Position numbers and translations under genes: made by a program. Below, piece by piece: positions 1-11,935 of a stretch of 18,830 nt of DNA. Below the pieces are notes generated by a model. The model saw only the letters and a program-made list of their open reading frames with translations, made no database searches and had not been told where the DNA came from. This stretch comes from Lysobacterales bacterium (GTDB taxonomy: Bacteria > Pseudomonadota > Gammaproteobacteria > Xanthomonadales > SZUA-5): positions 1-18,830 of the forward strand of contig JALHMH010000045.1 of NCBI GenBank assembly GCA_022844165.1. The letters run 5' to 3'. Numbering within the stretch: the stretch's first letter is position 1; the number at the start of each line of letters is the position of its first letter.

Positions 1-327
1 TATCGAAAGTGGCTTCAGTTTTGGCCGCGGATTGAACGACTCGACAGGATCGGTCGCAACCGATTCGGAACTCCGCGAGCCGCCCACCGGATTGGCGACA
101 AAATGCGCGACGCTGAGCTTGTCTGCGCGGACTTCGAGAATCTCCTGATGTTCGCGACCGTCCTCCAGCACGCCATTCACCTGATAAACGCCGGGGTCGA
201 GCTCGATCGACTGATTGCTACCGACCGTGGCCACCCAGCGCATCCGCGCATCGCGCACATCGAACTGCCACTGGTTGCCGAGGAGTTGCGACGGAAGTTC
301 CACATCAACACGCAGTTGTCCTTTCAT
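1..327 (-). CDS. Hypothetical protein, 5' part only (runs off window); N-terminal beta-rich (PEGA/Ig-like?) domain
   Basis: Not in ORF track because it has no stop in the window. ATG at 327-325 overlaps the caspase TGA (ATGA), AAGGT RBS-like motif about 6 nt upstream, open for 109 codons to the edge: MKGQLRVDVELPSQLLGNQWQFDVRDARMRWVATVGSNQSIELDPGVYQVNGVLEDGREHQEILEVRADKLSVAHFVANPVGGSRSSESVATDPVESFNPRPKLKPLSI. Confidence 0.8.
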   Translation of the reverse strand, partial: MKGQLRVDVELPSQLLGNQWQFDVRDARMRWVATVGSNQSIELDPGVYQVNGVLEDGREHQEILEVRADKLSVAHFVANPVGGSRSSESVATDPVESFNPRPKLKPLSI

Positions 328-1478
328 GGTTGCACCTTCGCGGCGATTCGCGTTGCCGGTGGGTCGACTGGAACATATTTGTTGAATGAGCGGTAAGGGC
401 TCGCGGTGGTGATCCTGATCGCACACACGCCGGCTTCGACCTCAGCCCTGGCTGGCCACTCGGAGGAGGTTGCGACGATCTGCATGTTCGCGTCCTCGAC
501 GCTCAACGTCGAGGACGGCGCTGCTTCGATGGGGTCGATTGAAACCGTCAGGGTCACGCTGGGCGGCCTGTCGTACACATGAAACACGGCCGGGCGCGGC
601 ATTCCGGCGGGTTCCACCCATTGTTCGACACCGGCTGAGGTAGCCAATTCGCTAACGCGGTTCGGCAACACCGTCAGCAGCTTTGCCACCGGCACGTGCC
701 AGGCGTCGACATGGCGGCTATCCGGCCCCTCGGCCGCCGCGCCCGTCGCCATGGAATCGAGCAGCGCATCGGCAAAGAACGTGCGTCCGCCGGGACGTCC
801 ATAGGCGCTGGTGCCGGTGATTGCGCTTAGCAGCAGCAGCGAAGAATCGCAGTGACCTGTGTTGACGATGTCGAGCGTGAGTGCGCCGCTCAGCAGGTTG
901 TCGAACTGTCGCGCGATCTCTGGTGGTTGCCGGCATGCATCGACAAACCAGAATTGATGCTTTGGCGCATCCGCGTTGTTGAACGCCCGGTGCACGCCGA
1001 CCAGATCGATGCTGCCATGCATACGCCGCGCAACCTTGGCGGTGCCGAAGTCTTCGAGCAGGAGAACGGCGCCGGCCATATTCAATTGCACGCCATGGCC
1101 GGCGACATACACCACCGCGTGGTTGTCGCGATGCCGATGGCAGATCGCCCAAAATTGCTCCAGTCCGTTCTCGACGTTGGCCCGGGTGGCTGGGAGATTG
1201 TCCAGAGCGCGGTAACGATCCGCGATCTGCTCGTCGGGCCCGGGCGACAGGAACAGGCGCAGGCTGCGCAAAGGCGGCAGTCCGATGGTCTTGCGGGTCT
1301 CCAGCCATTGCGCGACGTCGCTCGCCGATCGGGCCGCCGATCGCAATTGTTTCATGCCCGTCGATTCGCCCACTTCGGTCGGCTCGCTGCCGTCGGCAAA
1401 GTGCCGATACGCACTCACACCGATCACCAGCACATGCGTGCCGGGTGCGCTGTCATCATCGTCAATCACGATCGCCAT
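324..1478 (-). CDS. Caspase-like peptidase (C14 family, metacaspase-type) with C-terminal ~77-aa beta-rich domain, ~384 aa
   Basis: Motifs HVLVIGVSAY, ATRANV, VVYVAGHG (catalytic His), FWFVDACR (catalytic Cys), SAITGTSAY, GRTFFADALL. True start probably ATG 1478 (GGAG 8 nt upstream) or ATG 1484 (TGATG overlap with upstream stop); the extension to 2105 in the ORF track is a shadow of the upstream gene. Confidence 0.9.
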   Translation of the reverse strand: MAIVIDDDDSAPGTHVLVIGVSAYRHFADGSEPTEVGESTGMKQLRSAARSASDVAQWLETRKTIGLPPLRSLRLFLSPGPDEQIADRYRALDNLPATRANVENGLEQFWAICHRHRDNHAVVYVAGHGVQLNMAGAVLLLEDFGTAKVARRMHGSIDLVGVHRAFNNADAPKHQFWFVDACRQPPEIARQFDNLLSGALTLDIVNTGHCDSSLLLLSAITGTSAYGRPGGRTFFADALLDSMATGAAAEGPDSRHVDAWHVPVAKLLTVLPNRVSELATSAGVEQWVEPAGMPRPAVFHVYDRPPSVTLTVSIDPIEAAPSSTLSVEDANMQIVATSSEWPARAEVEAGVCAIRITTASPYRSFNKYVPVDPPATRIAAKVQP

Positions 1479-1483
1479 GGGCA

Positions 1484-2620
1484 TCACTCCACAAACATCG
1501 GGTCGTGCAGTTCTGCGAGCGGGCGATAGCCGCCGCGCATGCGGGCTTGCACGCTTTCGTGTACCAGCGGACGGACATCGGAATGCGGTCGGCGTGGGTT
1601 CCCACGATTGACGTGCCATTCGCGGCGCCAGATTTCTTCCGCTTCGCCGTCGTCGCCGCTGCGCAGTTCGCGGCGCATTCGCGGAATGGGCAAATGCTCG
1701 ATCACCCGCCACCAGGGTCTCAAGCGCAACTCGTCGTGGAGTGGGGCGGTTGCGTGCGCCTCCGCCAGCGTCTTGAGGAGTGTGGAATCGTCGCTGACCT
1801 GAAGGTCGCCAGTTTGGCTGGCGCTGACCTCCGGCTTGAAAGTGAGTCCGGCGGCCTGCGCTTCGCGTTGCATCCAGGCGAGGGTGATCAACGACAATCC
1901 AGCCTCGGCATCGCGATAGCCGCCGCCGATATCGGAGTGATTGCCGGCGAACCAGACCTGGCGCACATCGGTGGTTGTATTGGGTTCCTTGTGTGTCCAG
2001 CGATTCTGGACGAACATCACCCGCCGTTCGTCCAGCGCCAGTGCCTGGCGCACGCAACGCACGCGCGGATTGTCGAAAGTGTAGGAAAACCTTTGTGGCA
2101 TCCATGGCAGGCCGACGGCGCTCACCGAATCGAACAGCCCGATGAAACGGATGTCCTTGATGAAGCGACCATAGTGCCGCCGAAAGCGCGCGCCGGCGTC
2201 GTCGCCACGCTGCCAGGGCGCGAGATAAGCCTTCCAGGCGAATGGCACCATTTCGTCAAAACCGCGATGCAATAAGCCAACCCGGGTGAGCATGCCGGCC
2301 AGCACGCGCGCGGCAAAAGCGCCTCGCGAGAAACCAAAAAGGTACAGTTCATCGCCGTCCTGCCAGTTCGACATCAGATAGCGATAGGCGGCGCAAACAT
2401 GCCGCTCAATAAAGATCGCCGACATCGAGTCGATCGTCATCAGCGCGCGTTTGGCAAACGTGCTCAGCACCGACCCTGGCTCCAGTGTGCCTACGCCGGG
2501 TTGGTAATACGTGAGCTGTTCGTGATCGCGCTTGAGCATCCGGAACAGACGCTGGATGTTGGTATAGCCGCCGTCCGGATAGTTATTCGTTCCATCGAGA
2601 CATAAGACGTGCCGGGTCAT
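1484..2620 (-). CDS. DUF2235 / Tle1-like alpha/beta hydrolase (putative phospholipase), ~378 aa
   Basis: Motifs VLCLDGTNN, TNIxRL, YYQPGVGT, LYLFGFSRGAFAAR (GxSxG nucleophile), FIGLFDSV, QALALDERR, QVWFAGNHSDIGGGY (HxDxGGG). Start ATG 2620 with GAGGAG 6 nt upstream. Confidence 0.92.
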   Translation of the reverse strand: MTRHVLCLDGTNNYPDGGYTNIQRLFRMLKRDHEQLTYYQPGVGTLEPGSVLSTFAKRALMTIDSMSAIFIERHVCAAYRYLMSNWQDGDELYLFGFSRGAFAARVLAGMLTRVGLLHRGFDEMVPFAWKAYLAPWQRGDDAGARFRRHYGRFIKDIRFIGLFDSVSAVGLPWMPQRFSYTFDNPRVRCVRQALALDERRVMFVQNRWTHKEPNTTTDVRQVWFAGNHSDIGGGYRDAEAGLSLITLAWMQREAQAAGLTFKPEVSASQTGDLQVSDDSTLLKTLAEAHATAPLHDELRLRPWWRVIEHLPIPRMRRELRSGDDGEAEEIWRREWHVNRGNPRRPHSDVRPLVHESVQARMRGGYRPLAELHDPMFVE

Positions 2621-2876
2621 ACCAAACTCCTCGCAGCGGATAGGATGGTCTAGCGGATGCAGTTTAACCAATTGTTGCGAGACGCAGGCGAGGGCGCTGG
2701 AGCAGTTCGAATAACCGAAGCGAGCGGCCTGGAGGCAAGGCGGATCCCACTTCCACAGGAGCACACCATGAAAATCCGCAACAACGTTTTGCCTGGCACA
2801 GCCGCCCCGGGGACTTGCAGCCTGACGGCGGATACCTGATCTTGGTGGGATATGCTGTACTCAACGGAGACCGCCG

Positions 2877-3668
2877 ATGATCATCGAGCGCATCTGGGTG
2901 GGCAATACGCTTCGGAATTTCAACTATCTGCTGGCCTGCCCGGATAGCGGTGAAGCGCTTGCCATTGATCCGCTGGATCACCGGCAGGTTCTCGCCGTAG
3001 CGCGGGATCGTGGTTGGCACATCACCCAGATCCTCAATACTCACGAACACCACGATCATATCGGCGGCAATGCTGCTGTGGCCGCAGCAACGGGTGCCAG
3101 GGTCATAGCGCATGAGCTGGCCAGCAGCCGGATTCCGGACGTCGATCGCGGCGTTGGCGCTGGCGATGTCATCCAGGTGGGCAGGACGGTCGAACTGGAA
3201 TGTCTGGACACGCCCGGACATACGTTGAGCCATATCTGCCTGCTGGCCCATACCGGGCAACCGGCATTGTTTTCCGGCGATACCCTGTTCAATGCCGGTG
3301 CCGGCAATGTCCGAAACGGCGGCAATGTCCACGCGCTGTACCGCACTTTCGTCGATCAGTTGATGCGACTGCCGGCCAACACTCGGGTGTTTCCCGGACA
3401 CGATTACATCGAAAACAACTTGGCCTTTACGCTCTCACGCGAACCCGACAATCGCGATGCTGCAGCGCTGCTGGAGCGCGTCCGCGGCCACGATCCGGCT
3501 GGGGCACCGGTGGCGACACTGGCCCAGGAGATGCGGCACAACAGCTTCTTCCGTCTGGACCAAGCCAGGATCATCGCCGGATTGAGGCTGAATTTCCCGG
3601 ATCTGCCTGAGCAGCCGGATGCCGAAACCGTGTTCATCAAGCTGCGCGAGCTGCGCGATCTCTGGTGA
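2877..3668 (+). CDS. gloB: Hydroxyacylglutathione hydrolase (glyoxalase II, metallo-beta-lactamase fold)
   Basis: THEHHDHIGG, TPGHT, FSGDTLF, PGHDY, ATLAQEMRHNSF, C-terminal FxxLRxxRD; GGAG RBS upstream. Confidence 0.9.
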   Translation: MIIERIWVGNTLRNFNYLLACPDSGEALAIDPLDHRQVLAVARDRGWHITQILNTHEHHDHIGGNAAVAAATGARVIAHELASSRIPDVDRGVGAGDVIQVGRTVELECLDTPGHTLSHICLLAHTGQPALFSGDTLFNAGAGNVRNGGNVHALYRTFVDQLMRLPANTRVFPGHDYIENNLAFTLSREPDNRDAAALLERVRGHDPAGAPVATLAQEMRHNSFFRLDQARIIAGLRLNFPDLPEQPDAETVFIKLRELRDLW

Positions 3669-8532: not shown

Positions 8533-8633
8533 AGCGCACTCACCCGATGGGTGTATCGCCCAAACTGCTGAAAAGGCAATAGATACATGAACCTATGGGC
8601 CTGGAGAAGCGGTCAACCGAGGTTTTCAGGATC

Positions 8634-9557
8634 ATGACGCGCAAACCGCCGCCGCCTCGCCAGGACAATCCCGAAGATGCCGCACAGCGCATTGCGCGTT
8701 TTTGCGACTCACTGTGGGCCGAACGTGGTTTGGCCAAGGCATCGCTCGCCAGCTATGCAAGCGATCTGAATCTGCTCGCCGTTTTTCTGCGTACCCGGCA
8801 ACGCACATTGGACGATGTCAGCCGCCAGGAATTGTTCGACTATCTGGCCACTCGAATGAACGAGGGGCTGAAGCCGCGCTCGGCGGCGCGCCTACTGTCG
8901 GTGATGAAGCAATACTTCAACTGGGCTCGTGAGCAGGGCTTCCGCGACGATATCCCGAGCGCGGAACTGAGTTCACCGAAACTGCCGCGCGCCTTGCCGA
9001 AAGCACTGAGCGAATCGGAGGTTGTTTGCCTGCTCCGGGCGCCCGAGGTCTCTACGCCGCTTGGTTTGCGCGACAAAGCGATGCTCGAGTTGCTGTATGC
9101 ATCGGGACTTCGTGTATCGGAACTGGTGGCGCTGCGCAGCGAGCAAGTGAGTTTGGCGCAGGGCGTGTTGCGAATCCGCGGCAAAGGAAACAAGGATCGC
9201 CTGGTGCCGATGGGGGACGAGGCGCAGGCCTGGATCGAACGTTATTTGAGCGAAGGTCGCCCGTTGCTGCACGACAAACCCCAACCAGCCCTTTTCATCA
9301 CAACGCGCGGCAGCGCCATGACGCGCCAGGCTTTTTGGGCGTTGATCAAACGCTACGCAATCGTTGCCGGTGTGCGCGATTTATCGCCGCACGTGTTGCG
9401 GCATAGTTTTGCCACGCATCTTCTGAACCATGGTGCCGACTTGCGCGTCGTGCAGCTGTTGTTGGGACATAGCGATCTGTCGACAACGCAGATTTACACG
9501 CATGTGGCGCGCGAAGGACTCAAGCGCCTGCACCAGCAGCACCATCCTCGCGGATGA
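8634..9557 (+). CDS. xerD: Site-specific tyrosine recombinase XerD
   Basis: LWAERGLA..SYxSDL, RDKAMLELLYASGLRVSELV, GKGNKDRLVP, SPHVLRHSFATHLLNHGADLRVVQLLLGHSDLSTTQIYTHV, C-terminal HHPRG typical of XerD. Start 8634 or 8595. Confidence 0.95.
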   Translation: MTRKPPPPRQDNPEDAAQRIARFCDSLWAERGLAKASLASYASDLNLLAVFLRTRQRTLDDVSRQELFDYLATRMNEGLKPRSAARLLSVMKQYFNWAREQGFRDDIPSAELSSPKLPRALPKALSESEVVCLLRAPEVSTPLGLRDKAMLELLYASGLRVSELVALRSEQVSLAQGVLRIRGKGNKDRLVPMGDEAQAWIERYLSEGRPLLHDKPQPALFITTRGSAMTRQAFWALIKRYAIVAGVRDLSPHVLRHSFATHLLNHGADLRVVQLLLGHSDLSTTQIYTHVAREGLKRLHQQHHPRG

Positions 9558-11935
9558 ACATTCTCAGCGACGAAACTCAGGACACGCCGCGCGGCAACGA
9601 AGCGCCGCAACTGGAAGTGCTGGGGCCATTCAAGCTGATTGAATTGCTGGGGCGCGGCGGGATGGGCGCGGTGTACCTGGCCGAGCAGGATCACCCGCGG
9701 CGACGCGTCGCGTTGAAGCTGATGCGCAGCGAGCTTGTGGGCAGCGACGACCTGAGACGCTTTACGCGCGAGGCGGGCTTCCTGGCCAAACTGGCGCACC
9801 CAGCCATTGCGCGTGTGCTCGAAGCCGGCCATGTTCGCGGCGCACTGGGACCGATACCCTATCTTGCGATGGAGTATGTGCAAGGCACCGGCCTGATTCG
9901 GCACGCCGCCGCTCTGTCGCCCGTGGCGCGCATTCGGCTGCTGGCAGACATCTGCCGTGCCGTACAACATGCGCATGCCCGTGGCGTGATTCATCGGGAT
10001 CTGAAGCCCGACAACATTCTGGTCGACAGCAACGGTTTGCCGAAGATCCTCGATTTTGGGATCGCCAAAGCTGTGGAGGCCGAGGACGACGACCCGACGG
10101 CACCGCACACGATGGCGGGGCATGTCATTGGAACGCCGAACTACATGAGTCCCGAACAACTGGCGGGTGCCGCGATCGATCCGCGTACCGATGTATACAG
10201 CCTGGGCGCGATCGCCTATGAGGTCCTCAGTGGTGCACGCGTACGCGAGTTCGCGGGCCAATCGCTGGCAGAGGCACAAGCTGCGTTGCATCTGGCGCCG
10301 ACACGGCTGGCGAACCGCGCACCCGCTACGCGAGGCGATATCGATACGATCGTGATGAAGGCACTGGCCGCCGAGCCGGAGCGACGTTATCAAAGTGCCG
10401 CGGAGCTCGCCGACGACTTCGAACGGTACTTGACGCGACGCCCAATTCTCGCGCGTCCGCCCTCCTTCGCTTACAGCGCAGGGCGTTACCTGGTTCGCAA
10501 TTGGCTGGCGCTCAGTGTTGCCGGCATCGTGGTGGCAAGCCTGCTCGGCGCGACGTTGGTTTCGCTCGGATTTGCAAAAAGGGCCGAACGCGCGCGCGCA
10601 GAGGCCGAAACACAGGCGGCAGTTGCGCGCGAAGTCAATGGGTTCTTGCGCTCGATGCTCAGCGCCGCCAACCCGCGTGCGAGCGCGGACCGGCCGACAA
10701 CCTTGCTGGACATGGTCGACAGAGCCAGAGACGCATTGGCGCAGCGCAACGTGAGCGCTGCGGTCGAACTGGAAATTCGCCGCACGCTGCTGGATACCTA
10801 CCGCGGCCTCAGTCAGTCCGAACAGGCCCTGGCTCAAGCCGAGGTGATCCTGGCTCACGCCCAGAGTATCGAGGCGCAGATTGAGGCGCAGTTGCATCGA
10901 GCGGCGCTGCTTGGAGAATTGCAGCGGCAAACCGAGGTCGCCGCAACACTGACGACGGTGGAATCGCTGATCGCACAATTAGCGACTGTGCCACCGGAAA
11001 GCGCACGTAAACTGGCGCTGGAGCGCGCCCGATGGCACACTCGCGACGGACGCTTCAACGAGGCGCTCACTGCCTTCGACGAAGCACTTGCAATGGCGTC
11101 AGGCGAGCTACGTCGCGACGACCCCGAACAGTTCCCGATTCGCGCCGATCGCCTCAACGTGCTCGCTGACTTGGGTCAAATCAACGCTGCGATGACTGAG
11201 TTCGATGCACTGATCGCTGACGTCGAACGCGTCCAGGGCGCCGATCATCCGGAGACACTGATCCTGCGCAACGATCGTGCGACGCTGTTTCACGGCACTG
11301 GCGCCACCGCCAGAGCGGCAGCGGAAATGGAAACGATCGCTGCCGATGCCGCCCGCGTATTCGGTCCCGATCACGAATTTACGTTGACAACGTTGCACAA
11401 CCTGGCGGCTGTCGAAATTGGACGTGGAAAACGACAACGGGCGCTGGAGTTGCTCAGCGAAAAACGCCGCCGGATGCAAGGCAGGTACGCCCCCGATCAC
11501 CTGAAACTGATCAATACCGAGTCGTCGCTCGCGGTTGTGGCCGCGCAACTCGGGGATGCCGACGGCGCGGAAGCCATCTATGTGGATGTGCTCAAGCGCT
11601 GGCCCGAAACCAAGAGCGGTTTCCCCGCGGAAATCGCAACCGCTCTGTTCAACCTCGCGCGTCTGCGCGCCGACCAAAAGCGTTGGCCACAAGCCCGCGC
11701 CGATTTTGAAACCCTCATCCGACGTATGGAGCAGGCAAAGCTCAGCGACTCCGTGTCGCTGGCACGATACCGCGTCGAGTTTGCCAGTCTGCTCCTGATC
11801 CACGAAAACGATGTGAGCGCCGCTCGTCGTCAACTGGACTTCGCCCACGCCAAAATCGAGCGAGAGCTGCCCGTCGATCATCCATCGCACAAGCTTGCGG
11901 ACCAGGTTGCGGCTCGCCTGGGCGAGTCGTTCTGA
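9554..11935 (+). CDS. Hanks-type Ser/Thr protein kinase with transmembrane helix and C-terminal TPR-like region
   Basis: LGRGGMGAVY, VALK, HRDLKPDN, ILDFG, GTPNYMSPEQ, DVYSLG, PERRYQSA; TM WLALSVAGIVVASLLGATLVSL; repeats of the GxDHPxTLxxxNxLA type. ATGA overlap with xerD. Confidence 0.93.
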   Translation: MNILSDETQDTPRGNEAPQLEVLGPFKLIELLGRGGMGAVYLAEQDHPRRRVALKLMRSELVGSDDLRRFTREAGFLAKLAHPAIARVLEAGHVRGALGPIPYLAMEYVQGTGLIRHAAALSPVARIRLLADICRAVQHAHARGVIHRDLKPDNILVDSNGLPKILDFGIAKAVEAEDDDPTAPHTMAGHVIGTPNYMSPEQLAGAAIDPRTDVYSLGAIAYEVLSGARVREFAGQSLAEAQAALHLAPTRLANRAPATRGDIDTIVMKALAAEPERRYQSAAELADDFERYLTRRPILARPPSFAYSAGRYLVRNWLALSVAGIVVASLLGATLVSLGFAKRAERARAEAETQAAVAREVNGFLRSMLSAANPRASADRPTTLLDMVDRARDALAQRNVSAAVELEIRRTLLDTYRGLSQSEQALAQAEVILAHAQSIEAQIEAQLHRAALLGELQRQTEVAATLTTVESLIAQLATVPPESARKLALERARWHTRDGRFNEALTAFDEALAMASGELRRDDPEQFPIRADRLNVLADLGQINAAMTEFDALIADVERVQGADHPETLILRNDRATLFHGTGATARAAAEMETIAADAARVFGPDHEFTLTTLHNLAAVEIGRGKRQRALELLSEKRRRMQGRYAPDHLKLINTESSLAVVAAQLGDADGAEAIYVDVLKRWPETKSGFPAEIATALFNLARLRADQKRWPQARADFETLIRRMEQAKLSDSVSLARYRVEFASLLLIHENDVSAARRQLDFAHAKIERELPVDHPSHKLADQVAARLGESF

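Follow-up and report, generated by a model that had tools for sequence, protein, structure and literature searches.

The canA/canB junction of a Canu operon

The 18,830-nucleotide stretch analyzed here (the window; positions 1–18,830 of contig JALHMH010000045.1 in assembly GCA_022844165.1, from a Lysobacterales bacterium) begins inside a pair of overlapping genes that form the canA/canB junction of Canu (caspase-nuclease), a known anti-phage operon described in 2025. canA encodes a caspase-like protease that ends in a small β-sandwich, and another sandwich of this domain type stands at the N-terminus of the canB product. All genes at the junction lie on the minus strand, with the following features:

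324..1484, minus strand: canA, gene for a caspase-like (Peptidase C14) protease of 386 codons; relatives are annotated from the second methionine, giving 384 amino acids
567..1445, minus strand: CanA catalytic caspase domain, residues about 14–306
327..560, minus strand: CanA C-terminal seven-stranded β-sandwich, residues 309–386 (the last 78)
468..500, minus strand: CanA 11-residue core VEDANMQIVAT, residues 329–339, in the hairpin linking sandwich strands 2 and 3
324..327, minus strand: ATGA overlap of the canA stop and the canB start, read from the sequence as translational coupling
1..327, minus strand: first 109 codons of canB, open at the contig start
94..327, minus strand: CanB N-terminal seven-stranded β-sandwich, residues 1 to about 78
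226..258, minus strand: CanB 11-residue core VRDARMRWVAT, residues 24–34, with R25 invariant and D26 nearly invariant among CanB relatives
1..93, minus strand: start of the disordered, hypervariable CanB linker, residues 79–109

The four-base overlap recurs in 29 of the 38 related loci examined. canB is cut after 109 codons because the window starts at base 1 of the contig, and the remaining fragment corresponds to the N-terminal third of the gene.

A scan of genome contigs with the caspase alignment as a profile recovered 64 related loci, and a single-sequence scan recovered none. The window caspase matches Pfam PF00656 (E = 2.3e-6) and the PADLOC 'caspase' model (E = 1.7e-10), and belongs to a family of 192 relatives of about 384 amino acids that cover 91–100% of the query; identity with the caspases of Pseudomonas loci L018 and L027 is 36–37% (E = 3e-66 and 1e-59). 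The catalytic dyad is present, with residues His130 and Cys184 invariant in an alignment of 32 family sequences, as are tail residues W343, P344, A351, G352 and P375. The AlphaFold model of CanA has a predicted local distance difference test (pLDDT) score of 91.2.

CanB relatives are 338–531 amino acids long and are encoded after the caspase gene. The window fragment shares 52% identity over residues 1–90 with the copy in locus L002 (tblastn E = 5e-27), a full-length CanB whose AlphaFold model has a pLDDT of 83.4, falling below 50 for residues 82–137. The layout of the family is an N-terminal sandwich, a disordered linker, another β domain and a TPR-like helical module (Pfam Y4kD_C). PF27295 is assigned to all five CanB relatives in the protein collection, and the ESM Atlas identifies it as Y4kD_C, covering about residues 140–373 and thus lying outside the N-terminal sandwich. 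Full-length CanB relatives gave nothing above threshold against Pfam (in a version without PF27295), PADLOC and NCBIfam, and a search of the y4kD literature found nothing relevant.

The Canu system was described by Tuck et al. (Science 2025; PMC12799240) for KaeCanABC of Klebsiella aerogenes, which protects E. coli from phage T4. According to its text, KaeCanA carries an Ig-like fold after the caspase domain and in this resembles MALT1, KaeCanA and KaeCanB are soluble only when co-expressed and then co-elute, and on infection the CanAB complex makes an active DNase of CanC, a pro-nuclease with the metallo-β-lactamase (MBL) fold. A preliminary description of the window, made from the sequence alone, had inferred that the product of the next gene is a partner or substrate of the caspase, and the co-elution reported for the homologous proteins bears out the partnership (PMC12799240). 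Our search of the caspase-nuclease literature from 2025 onwards found only this paper and its preprint to be relevant. A caspase-associated clade of protease-activated MBL nucleases was described independently by Evans et al. (bioRxiv 2025; PMC12642450), and the zymogen modules in the text of that study resemble Canu in pairing a protease with a latent MBL nuclease.

Relatives of the window genes share the Canu gene order of caspase, partner and MBL nuclease, the caspase His/Cys dyad followed by a C-terminal sandwich, and a CanB homolog directly downstream of canA. In a hidden Markov model (HMM) scan of the 64 loci, the CanA tail domain and the CanB N-terminal domain were both detected in 41, the latter lying in a separate downstream frame in 40 of them. 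Of the 23 loci with a downstream gene scanned, 19 encode after canB an MBL-fold protein of about 360–420 amino acids that is related to the Avs1a nuclease; the L002 copy matches the NCBIfam Avs1a MBL model with an E-value of 5.7e-52, below the cut-off of that model. Both predicted cut sites in the known substrate CanC bear the motif L-E-x-hydrophobic-G, and 17 of 19 CanC relatives contain two copies of it. In KaeCanC, the residues changed in the cut-site mutants G104K and G189K belong to LEGLG and LESMG, and replacement of the glycine abolishes defense (PMC12799240). The KaeCanA, KaeCanB and KaeCanC sequences (Table S1 of PMC12799240) share conserved motifs with the window families by eye, and are nearest to Pseudomonas loci L018 and L027. 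The window copy differs from Canu in being cut after 109 canB codons and in having no canC found in the assembly.

Two sandwiches of one domain type

The preliminary description had noticed that the two 11-residue cores resemble each other and had proposed that the caspase tail and the CanB N-terminus are the same small domain. The letters and coordinates of the cores are as it gave them, and VEDANMQIVAT and VRDARMRWVAT are identical at 7 of 11 positions. As a pairwise match, this likeness is at chance level. Smith–Waterman alignment placed the core alone, with a raw score of 30. Shuffled sequences scored at least as high in 290 of 2000 alignments with the caspase tail and in 529 of 1000 with the full caspase. 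BLASTP did not report the core alignment at all, its best E-value of 70 belonging to an unrelated stretch. The core is not conserved either: no residue reaches a majority in any core column among the 32 caspase-family sequences. Neither segment reaches the gathering score of a Pfam family; among 30 sequences of each, the CanB N-terminus scores for CarboxypepD_reg in two (best E = 0.0082) and PEGA in one, and the CanA tail scores for neither, with FlgD_ig alone in two (E = 0.25). These three results are what would be expected if the resemblance were due to chance or to convergence of two unrelated small β domains.

Comparison of profiles gave a different result. From the 64 loci we built a 30-sequence alignment of the caspase tail (A3) and a 30-sequence alignment of the CanB N-terminus (A4), and hhalign aligned the two with a probability of 82.7% (E = 9.6e-6, score 32.5) over 53 columns, in the register that the preliminary description had proposed. 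Reversed profiles scored 8.0 and 8.3, and 30 column shuffles scored at most 15.3 (best E = 0.025). Other domains of CanB remained in the same low range, the second β domain scoring 9.6 against A3 and 12.7 against A4 and the helical domain 11.0 against A3. The signal persisted when the clade of the window was removed (69%, E = 4e-5) and was seen in five of five random halves (60–85%).

Predicted structures agree with the profiles. In the CanA model the tail comprises a strand at residues 309–317, a helix at 319–324 and strands at 326–330, 336–340, 345–350, 352–359, 367–373 and 377–383, and the L002 CanB model opens with a strand at residues 3–10, a helix at 14–17 and strands at 21–25, 31–36, 40–43, 46–53, 59–66 and 71–77. 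Both domains therefore consist of a strand, a short helix and six further strands, with matching order and spacing of all seven strands and the helix. Of 22 Protein Data Bank entries that match CanA residues 309–386, 20 also match CanB residues 1–80, mostly over the same chain ranges (for example 8qox_B 128–218 and 127–219, and 1qmu_A 304–382 and 304–381). Transthyretin-like, CnaB and carboxypeptidase-D regulatory domains make up these shared neighbors, which bears out the guess in the preliminary description of a PEGA-like β-sandwich.

The CanA tail and the CanB N-terminus are thus both transthyretin-like sandwiches of the PEGA/CarboxypepD_reg type, a conclusion that holds because the profiles align, the order of secondary-structure elements agrees and the structural neighbors are common. 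Against chance or convergence stand an hhalign score that exceeds those of all shuffled and reversed controls and is stable in sub-samples, the like order and spacing of eight structural elements, and the common neighbors, and together they make that explanation very improbable. The likeness first reported accordingly stands as a shared domain type and falls as a pairwise sequence match; a chance-level motif match pointed to a real shared fold. We put the probability that the locus is a Canu canA/canB junction and that its two sandwiches share a domain type, taken jointly and excluding any contact between them, at roughly 0.8.

The kinship of the two domains is of superfamily level and they form no exclusive pair. 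We searched 1.84 billion representative sequences with the A4 profile and obtained 1991 proteins at E = 1e-3 or better. The best 150 of these 1991 comprise one stored CanB relative (P0128, 370 amino acids), 80 further proteins shorter than 800 amino acids, nearly all CanB-like with a single N-terminal match, and 69 of at least 800 amino acids, nearly all matched in several stretches. A Pfam scan of five of the large proteins found tandem sandwich repeats at domain level in three (PEGA ×19, CarboxypepD_reg ×12 and SpaA/SdrD_B ×5), and the remaining two score for PKD and PEGA with no domain-level match. Both Can domains match the fold of such PEGA, CarboxypepD_reg and SpaA/prealbumin-like repeats; the repeats are arranged in tandem on surface proteins, whereas the Can copies are single, cytoplasmic and encoded in a defense operon.

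Several further observations join this broad kinship in weighing against the picture of a complete Canu copy with a matched pair of sandwiches. A4 aligns with 18 repeat units from the giant proteins with a probability of 98% (E = 3.9e-14), these units having been picked by their likeness to A4, and A3 aligns weakly with the same units (46%, E = 2e-4) compared with E = 1e-5 for A3 with A4. Judged by these profile scores, the CanB N-terminal sandwich is much closer to generic PEGA/CarboxypepD_reg repeats than to the CanA tail, and the CanA tail is about equally close to both. Across the 64 loci, neither family HMM picks up the domain of the other at E = 1e-3. In ten distant relatives (L037, L044, L048, L051, L052, L054, L055, L058, L061 and L062), caspase and TPR module share a single frame of about 620–1125 codons in which neither sandwich HMM matches at E = 1e-3. 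These are fused forms of the CanA/CanB pair, and the actinobacterial members L037, L044 and L052 carry by eye a single sandwich, so that pairing is not universal. Finally, tblastn of the whole assembly (59 contigs) found neither the remainder of canB nor an MBL/CanC partner elsewhere, and with only 109 codons of canB and canC absent from window and assembly, the completeness of this copy cannot be demonstrated. As a separate observation, the one-frame relative in L044 continues into MBL motifs.

The CanB linker and neighboring genes

The preliminary description had also suggested that the Ser/Pro-rich linker following the CanB sandwich could be a cleavage site of the protease. The corresponding explanation of the two-gene arrangement is that CanB is, in addition, a CanA substrate cut in the disordered linker after its N-terminal sandwich. 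The predicted disorder of the linker in the L002 model (pLDDT below 50 at residues 82–137) would suit such a role, and related protease–effector modules act by site-specific cleavage (PMC12642450). The CanC-type L-E-x-hydrophobic-G motif is absent, however, from all 31 CanB linkers compared, which are disordered and hypervariable, range from 23 to 102 residues and have no sequence common to the 31 relatives; the window linker offers only VESFN, which lacks the glycine of that motif. A different motif, [FYW]-[TS]-[RK] (for example RPRFTR), is present in 10 of the 31 linkers compared with 1.4 expected from shuffles and could be counted in favor of cleavage, but it is restricted to one subclade (L004–L010, L014, L025 and L028) and absent from the clade of the window. 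This motif may be a docking or pseudosubstrate peptide. The text of Tuck et al. reports co-elution of CanB with CanA and is silent on its cleavage (PMC12799240). Taken together, these data leave cleavage in the linker an improbable explanation, and the suggestion of a cut site there is not upheld. In L009 the [FYW]-[TS]-[RK] motif occurs twice, within a tandem duplication of the linker.

Upstream of canA the window encodes a predicted hydrolase:

1484..2764, minus strand: Tle1-like (DUF2235) α/β-hydrolase gene (Pfam PF09994, E = 4.5e-76)

The stop codon of this gene overlaps the canA start by one base, and its true start is probably Met48 (nucleotide 2623). A Tle1-like gene lies directly upstream of canA in L002 (2332–3438) and L003 (6801–7964) and further upstream in L007 (5619–6923). 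As a difference from Canu, the coupled upstream gene is found only in the clade of the window (the window, L002 and L003, with L007 at a distance). Evans et al. describe a Lysobacter caspase that cleaves an α/β-hydrolase at R-G sites (PMC12642450). In contrast to those zymogen hydrolases, the Tle1-like protein of the window has no gating insertion when compared with the Pfam profile and no L-E-x-hydrophobic-G motif.

Patatin-like phospholipase genes stand beside the operon in L009, L011, L034 and L035, and an EAD1–trypsin gene in L023. The lipases may be accessory effectors. The CanC-type cut motif was found in none of four Tle1-like and one of four patatin-like proteins, its background frequency being about 0.4 per 1000 residues, and as far as such motif counts indicate, no accessory lipase has a convincing CanC-type cut motif.

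Elsewhere in the window (8595–11935, plus strand), a tyrosine-recombinase gene of the phage-integrase family shares four bases with the start of a gene for a TPR-repeat Ser/Thr kinase. PADLOC PD-T4-6 models match this kinase (E = 7e-77), and it may represent a second defense-type gene on a mobile element, but models of kinases are generic. A 245-codon frame at 2664–3401 on the minus strand overlaps a well-supported plus-strand glyoxalase-II-type gene at 2877–3668 (Lactamase_B and HAGH_C), has no family match and is probably not a gene. Among the other loci, L053 (3305–5604) and L060 (6583–9736) contain two or three tandem caspase genes of the CanA family, with no CanB detected.

Possible contact between the sandwiches

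Whether the two sandwiches touch is a separate matter from their shared domain type. In the mechanism we consider, CanA is a caspase-like protease ending in a seven-stranded transthyretin-like sandwich, and CanB, translationally coupled to it, presents a second sandwich of the same superfamily at its N-terminus. The two proteins would form the complex that, for the K. aerogenes homologs, converts CanC into a DNase on infection (PMC12799240). The sandwiches would pack together as part of the CanA–CanB interface, and the sensor-like part of CanB would then be coupled to the protease, much as Ig3 regulates MALT1. We infer sandwich-to-sandwich docking only tentatively, at somewhat less than an even chance. 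In its favor, both domains sit at the coupled gene junction. Their co-occurrence also points this way, with both domains in 41 of the 64 loci, neither in 18 and 5 loci discordant; this is weak evidence because of the common descent of the loci and the parallel loss of sensitivity in the two HMMs. Complex prediction for the whole caspase with CanB residues 1–90 gave 0.09, 0.60 and 0.20 in three runs against a mark of 0.32, a series without controls that speaks neither for nor against binding.

The main rival to docking, to which we give a chance approaching one half, is that the two domains are of the same type and make no mutual contact. The CanA tail would then act in cis on the caspase like Ig3 of MALT1, and CanB would bind through its middle or TPR-like part or use its N-terminal sandwich for another ligand, such as a phage-derived trigger; the likeness of the sandwiches would stem from common use of a very abundant module, or from duplication at a gene-fission point. 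The superfamily-level kinship described above fits this explanation, as do the 1991 matches to the CanB profile, in which 69 of the best 150 are large and nearly all of those matched in multiple stretches, and the tandem repeats in three of the five large proteins scanned. The Y4kD_C module is also found behind pYEATS in a 617-amino-acid ESM Atlas cluster (pYEATS in 96% of members, Y4kD_C in 56%; feature score 0.84, a lead only), which hints that the N-terminal domain of the Y4kD_C module family is exchangeable. The top structural matches of the caspase model are MALT1 chains that themselves carry a domain C-terminal to the caspase fold. Against an arrangement with no contact stand the position of both domains exactly at the coupled junction and, as weak evidence, their co-occurrence.

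The likeness to the MALT1 paracaspase, which combines a caspase domain with Ig3, has limits of its own. Identity is 9–14% and the VIA alignments span only model residues 14–306, whereas the CanA tail matches transthyretin-like and CnaB domains instead; the equivalence of the tail to Ig3 is therefore positional only. The preliminary description had likened the paired domains to the homotypic adaptors of caspases, CARD and DED in animals and effector-associated domains (EADs) in bacteria. The part of this comparison that survives is that the same small module occurs on a protease and its partner. Beyond that it is an analogy, as CARD, DED and EAD adaptors are helical, whereas the Can domains are all-β sandwiches and not death folds, and no EAD or death-fold Pfam family matched either segment at E-values up to 1.

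Transthyretin-like domains often pair edge-to-edge. One origin for a docked pair, which we consider rather unlikely, is that fission of an ancestral gene at the sandwich left both products with a copy, and that these copies now pair edge-to-edge and relay the state of the CanB sensor to the protease. When the inter-domain region of the ten fused relatives was compared by hhalign, it gave a weak match to the CanB N-terminal sandwich (probability 34%, E = 4e-4) and none to the CanA tail; because this set is too heterogeneous, the fused relatives do not decide which sandwich is ancestral. An apparent CanA–CanB fusion in L015 (7959–10181; P0124, 738 amino acids), which is the sole longer relative found, was not counted. 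Its caspase tail departs from that of its close relative L016 shortly ahead of the junction, as would result from a frameshift in a metagenome-assembled genome more readily than from a true fusion.

As it stands, the finding mainly assigns the window to a known defense system. The text of Tuck et al. leaves open the role of CanB and its binding to CanA (PMC12799240), and if the docking proposal is true, the paired sandwiches would provide a concrete, testable handle on the licensing of a bacterial caspase by a partner protein. A β-sandwich analog would thereby join the helical homotypic adaptors that animal caspases use. Were the pair in addition to derive from a split gene, it would supply a structural basis for the CanAB complex and exemplify how a domain duplicated where a gene splits can create a heterodimer interface.

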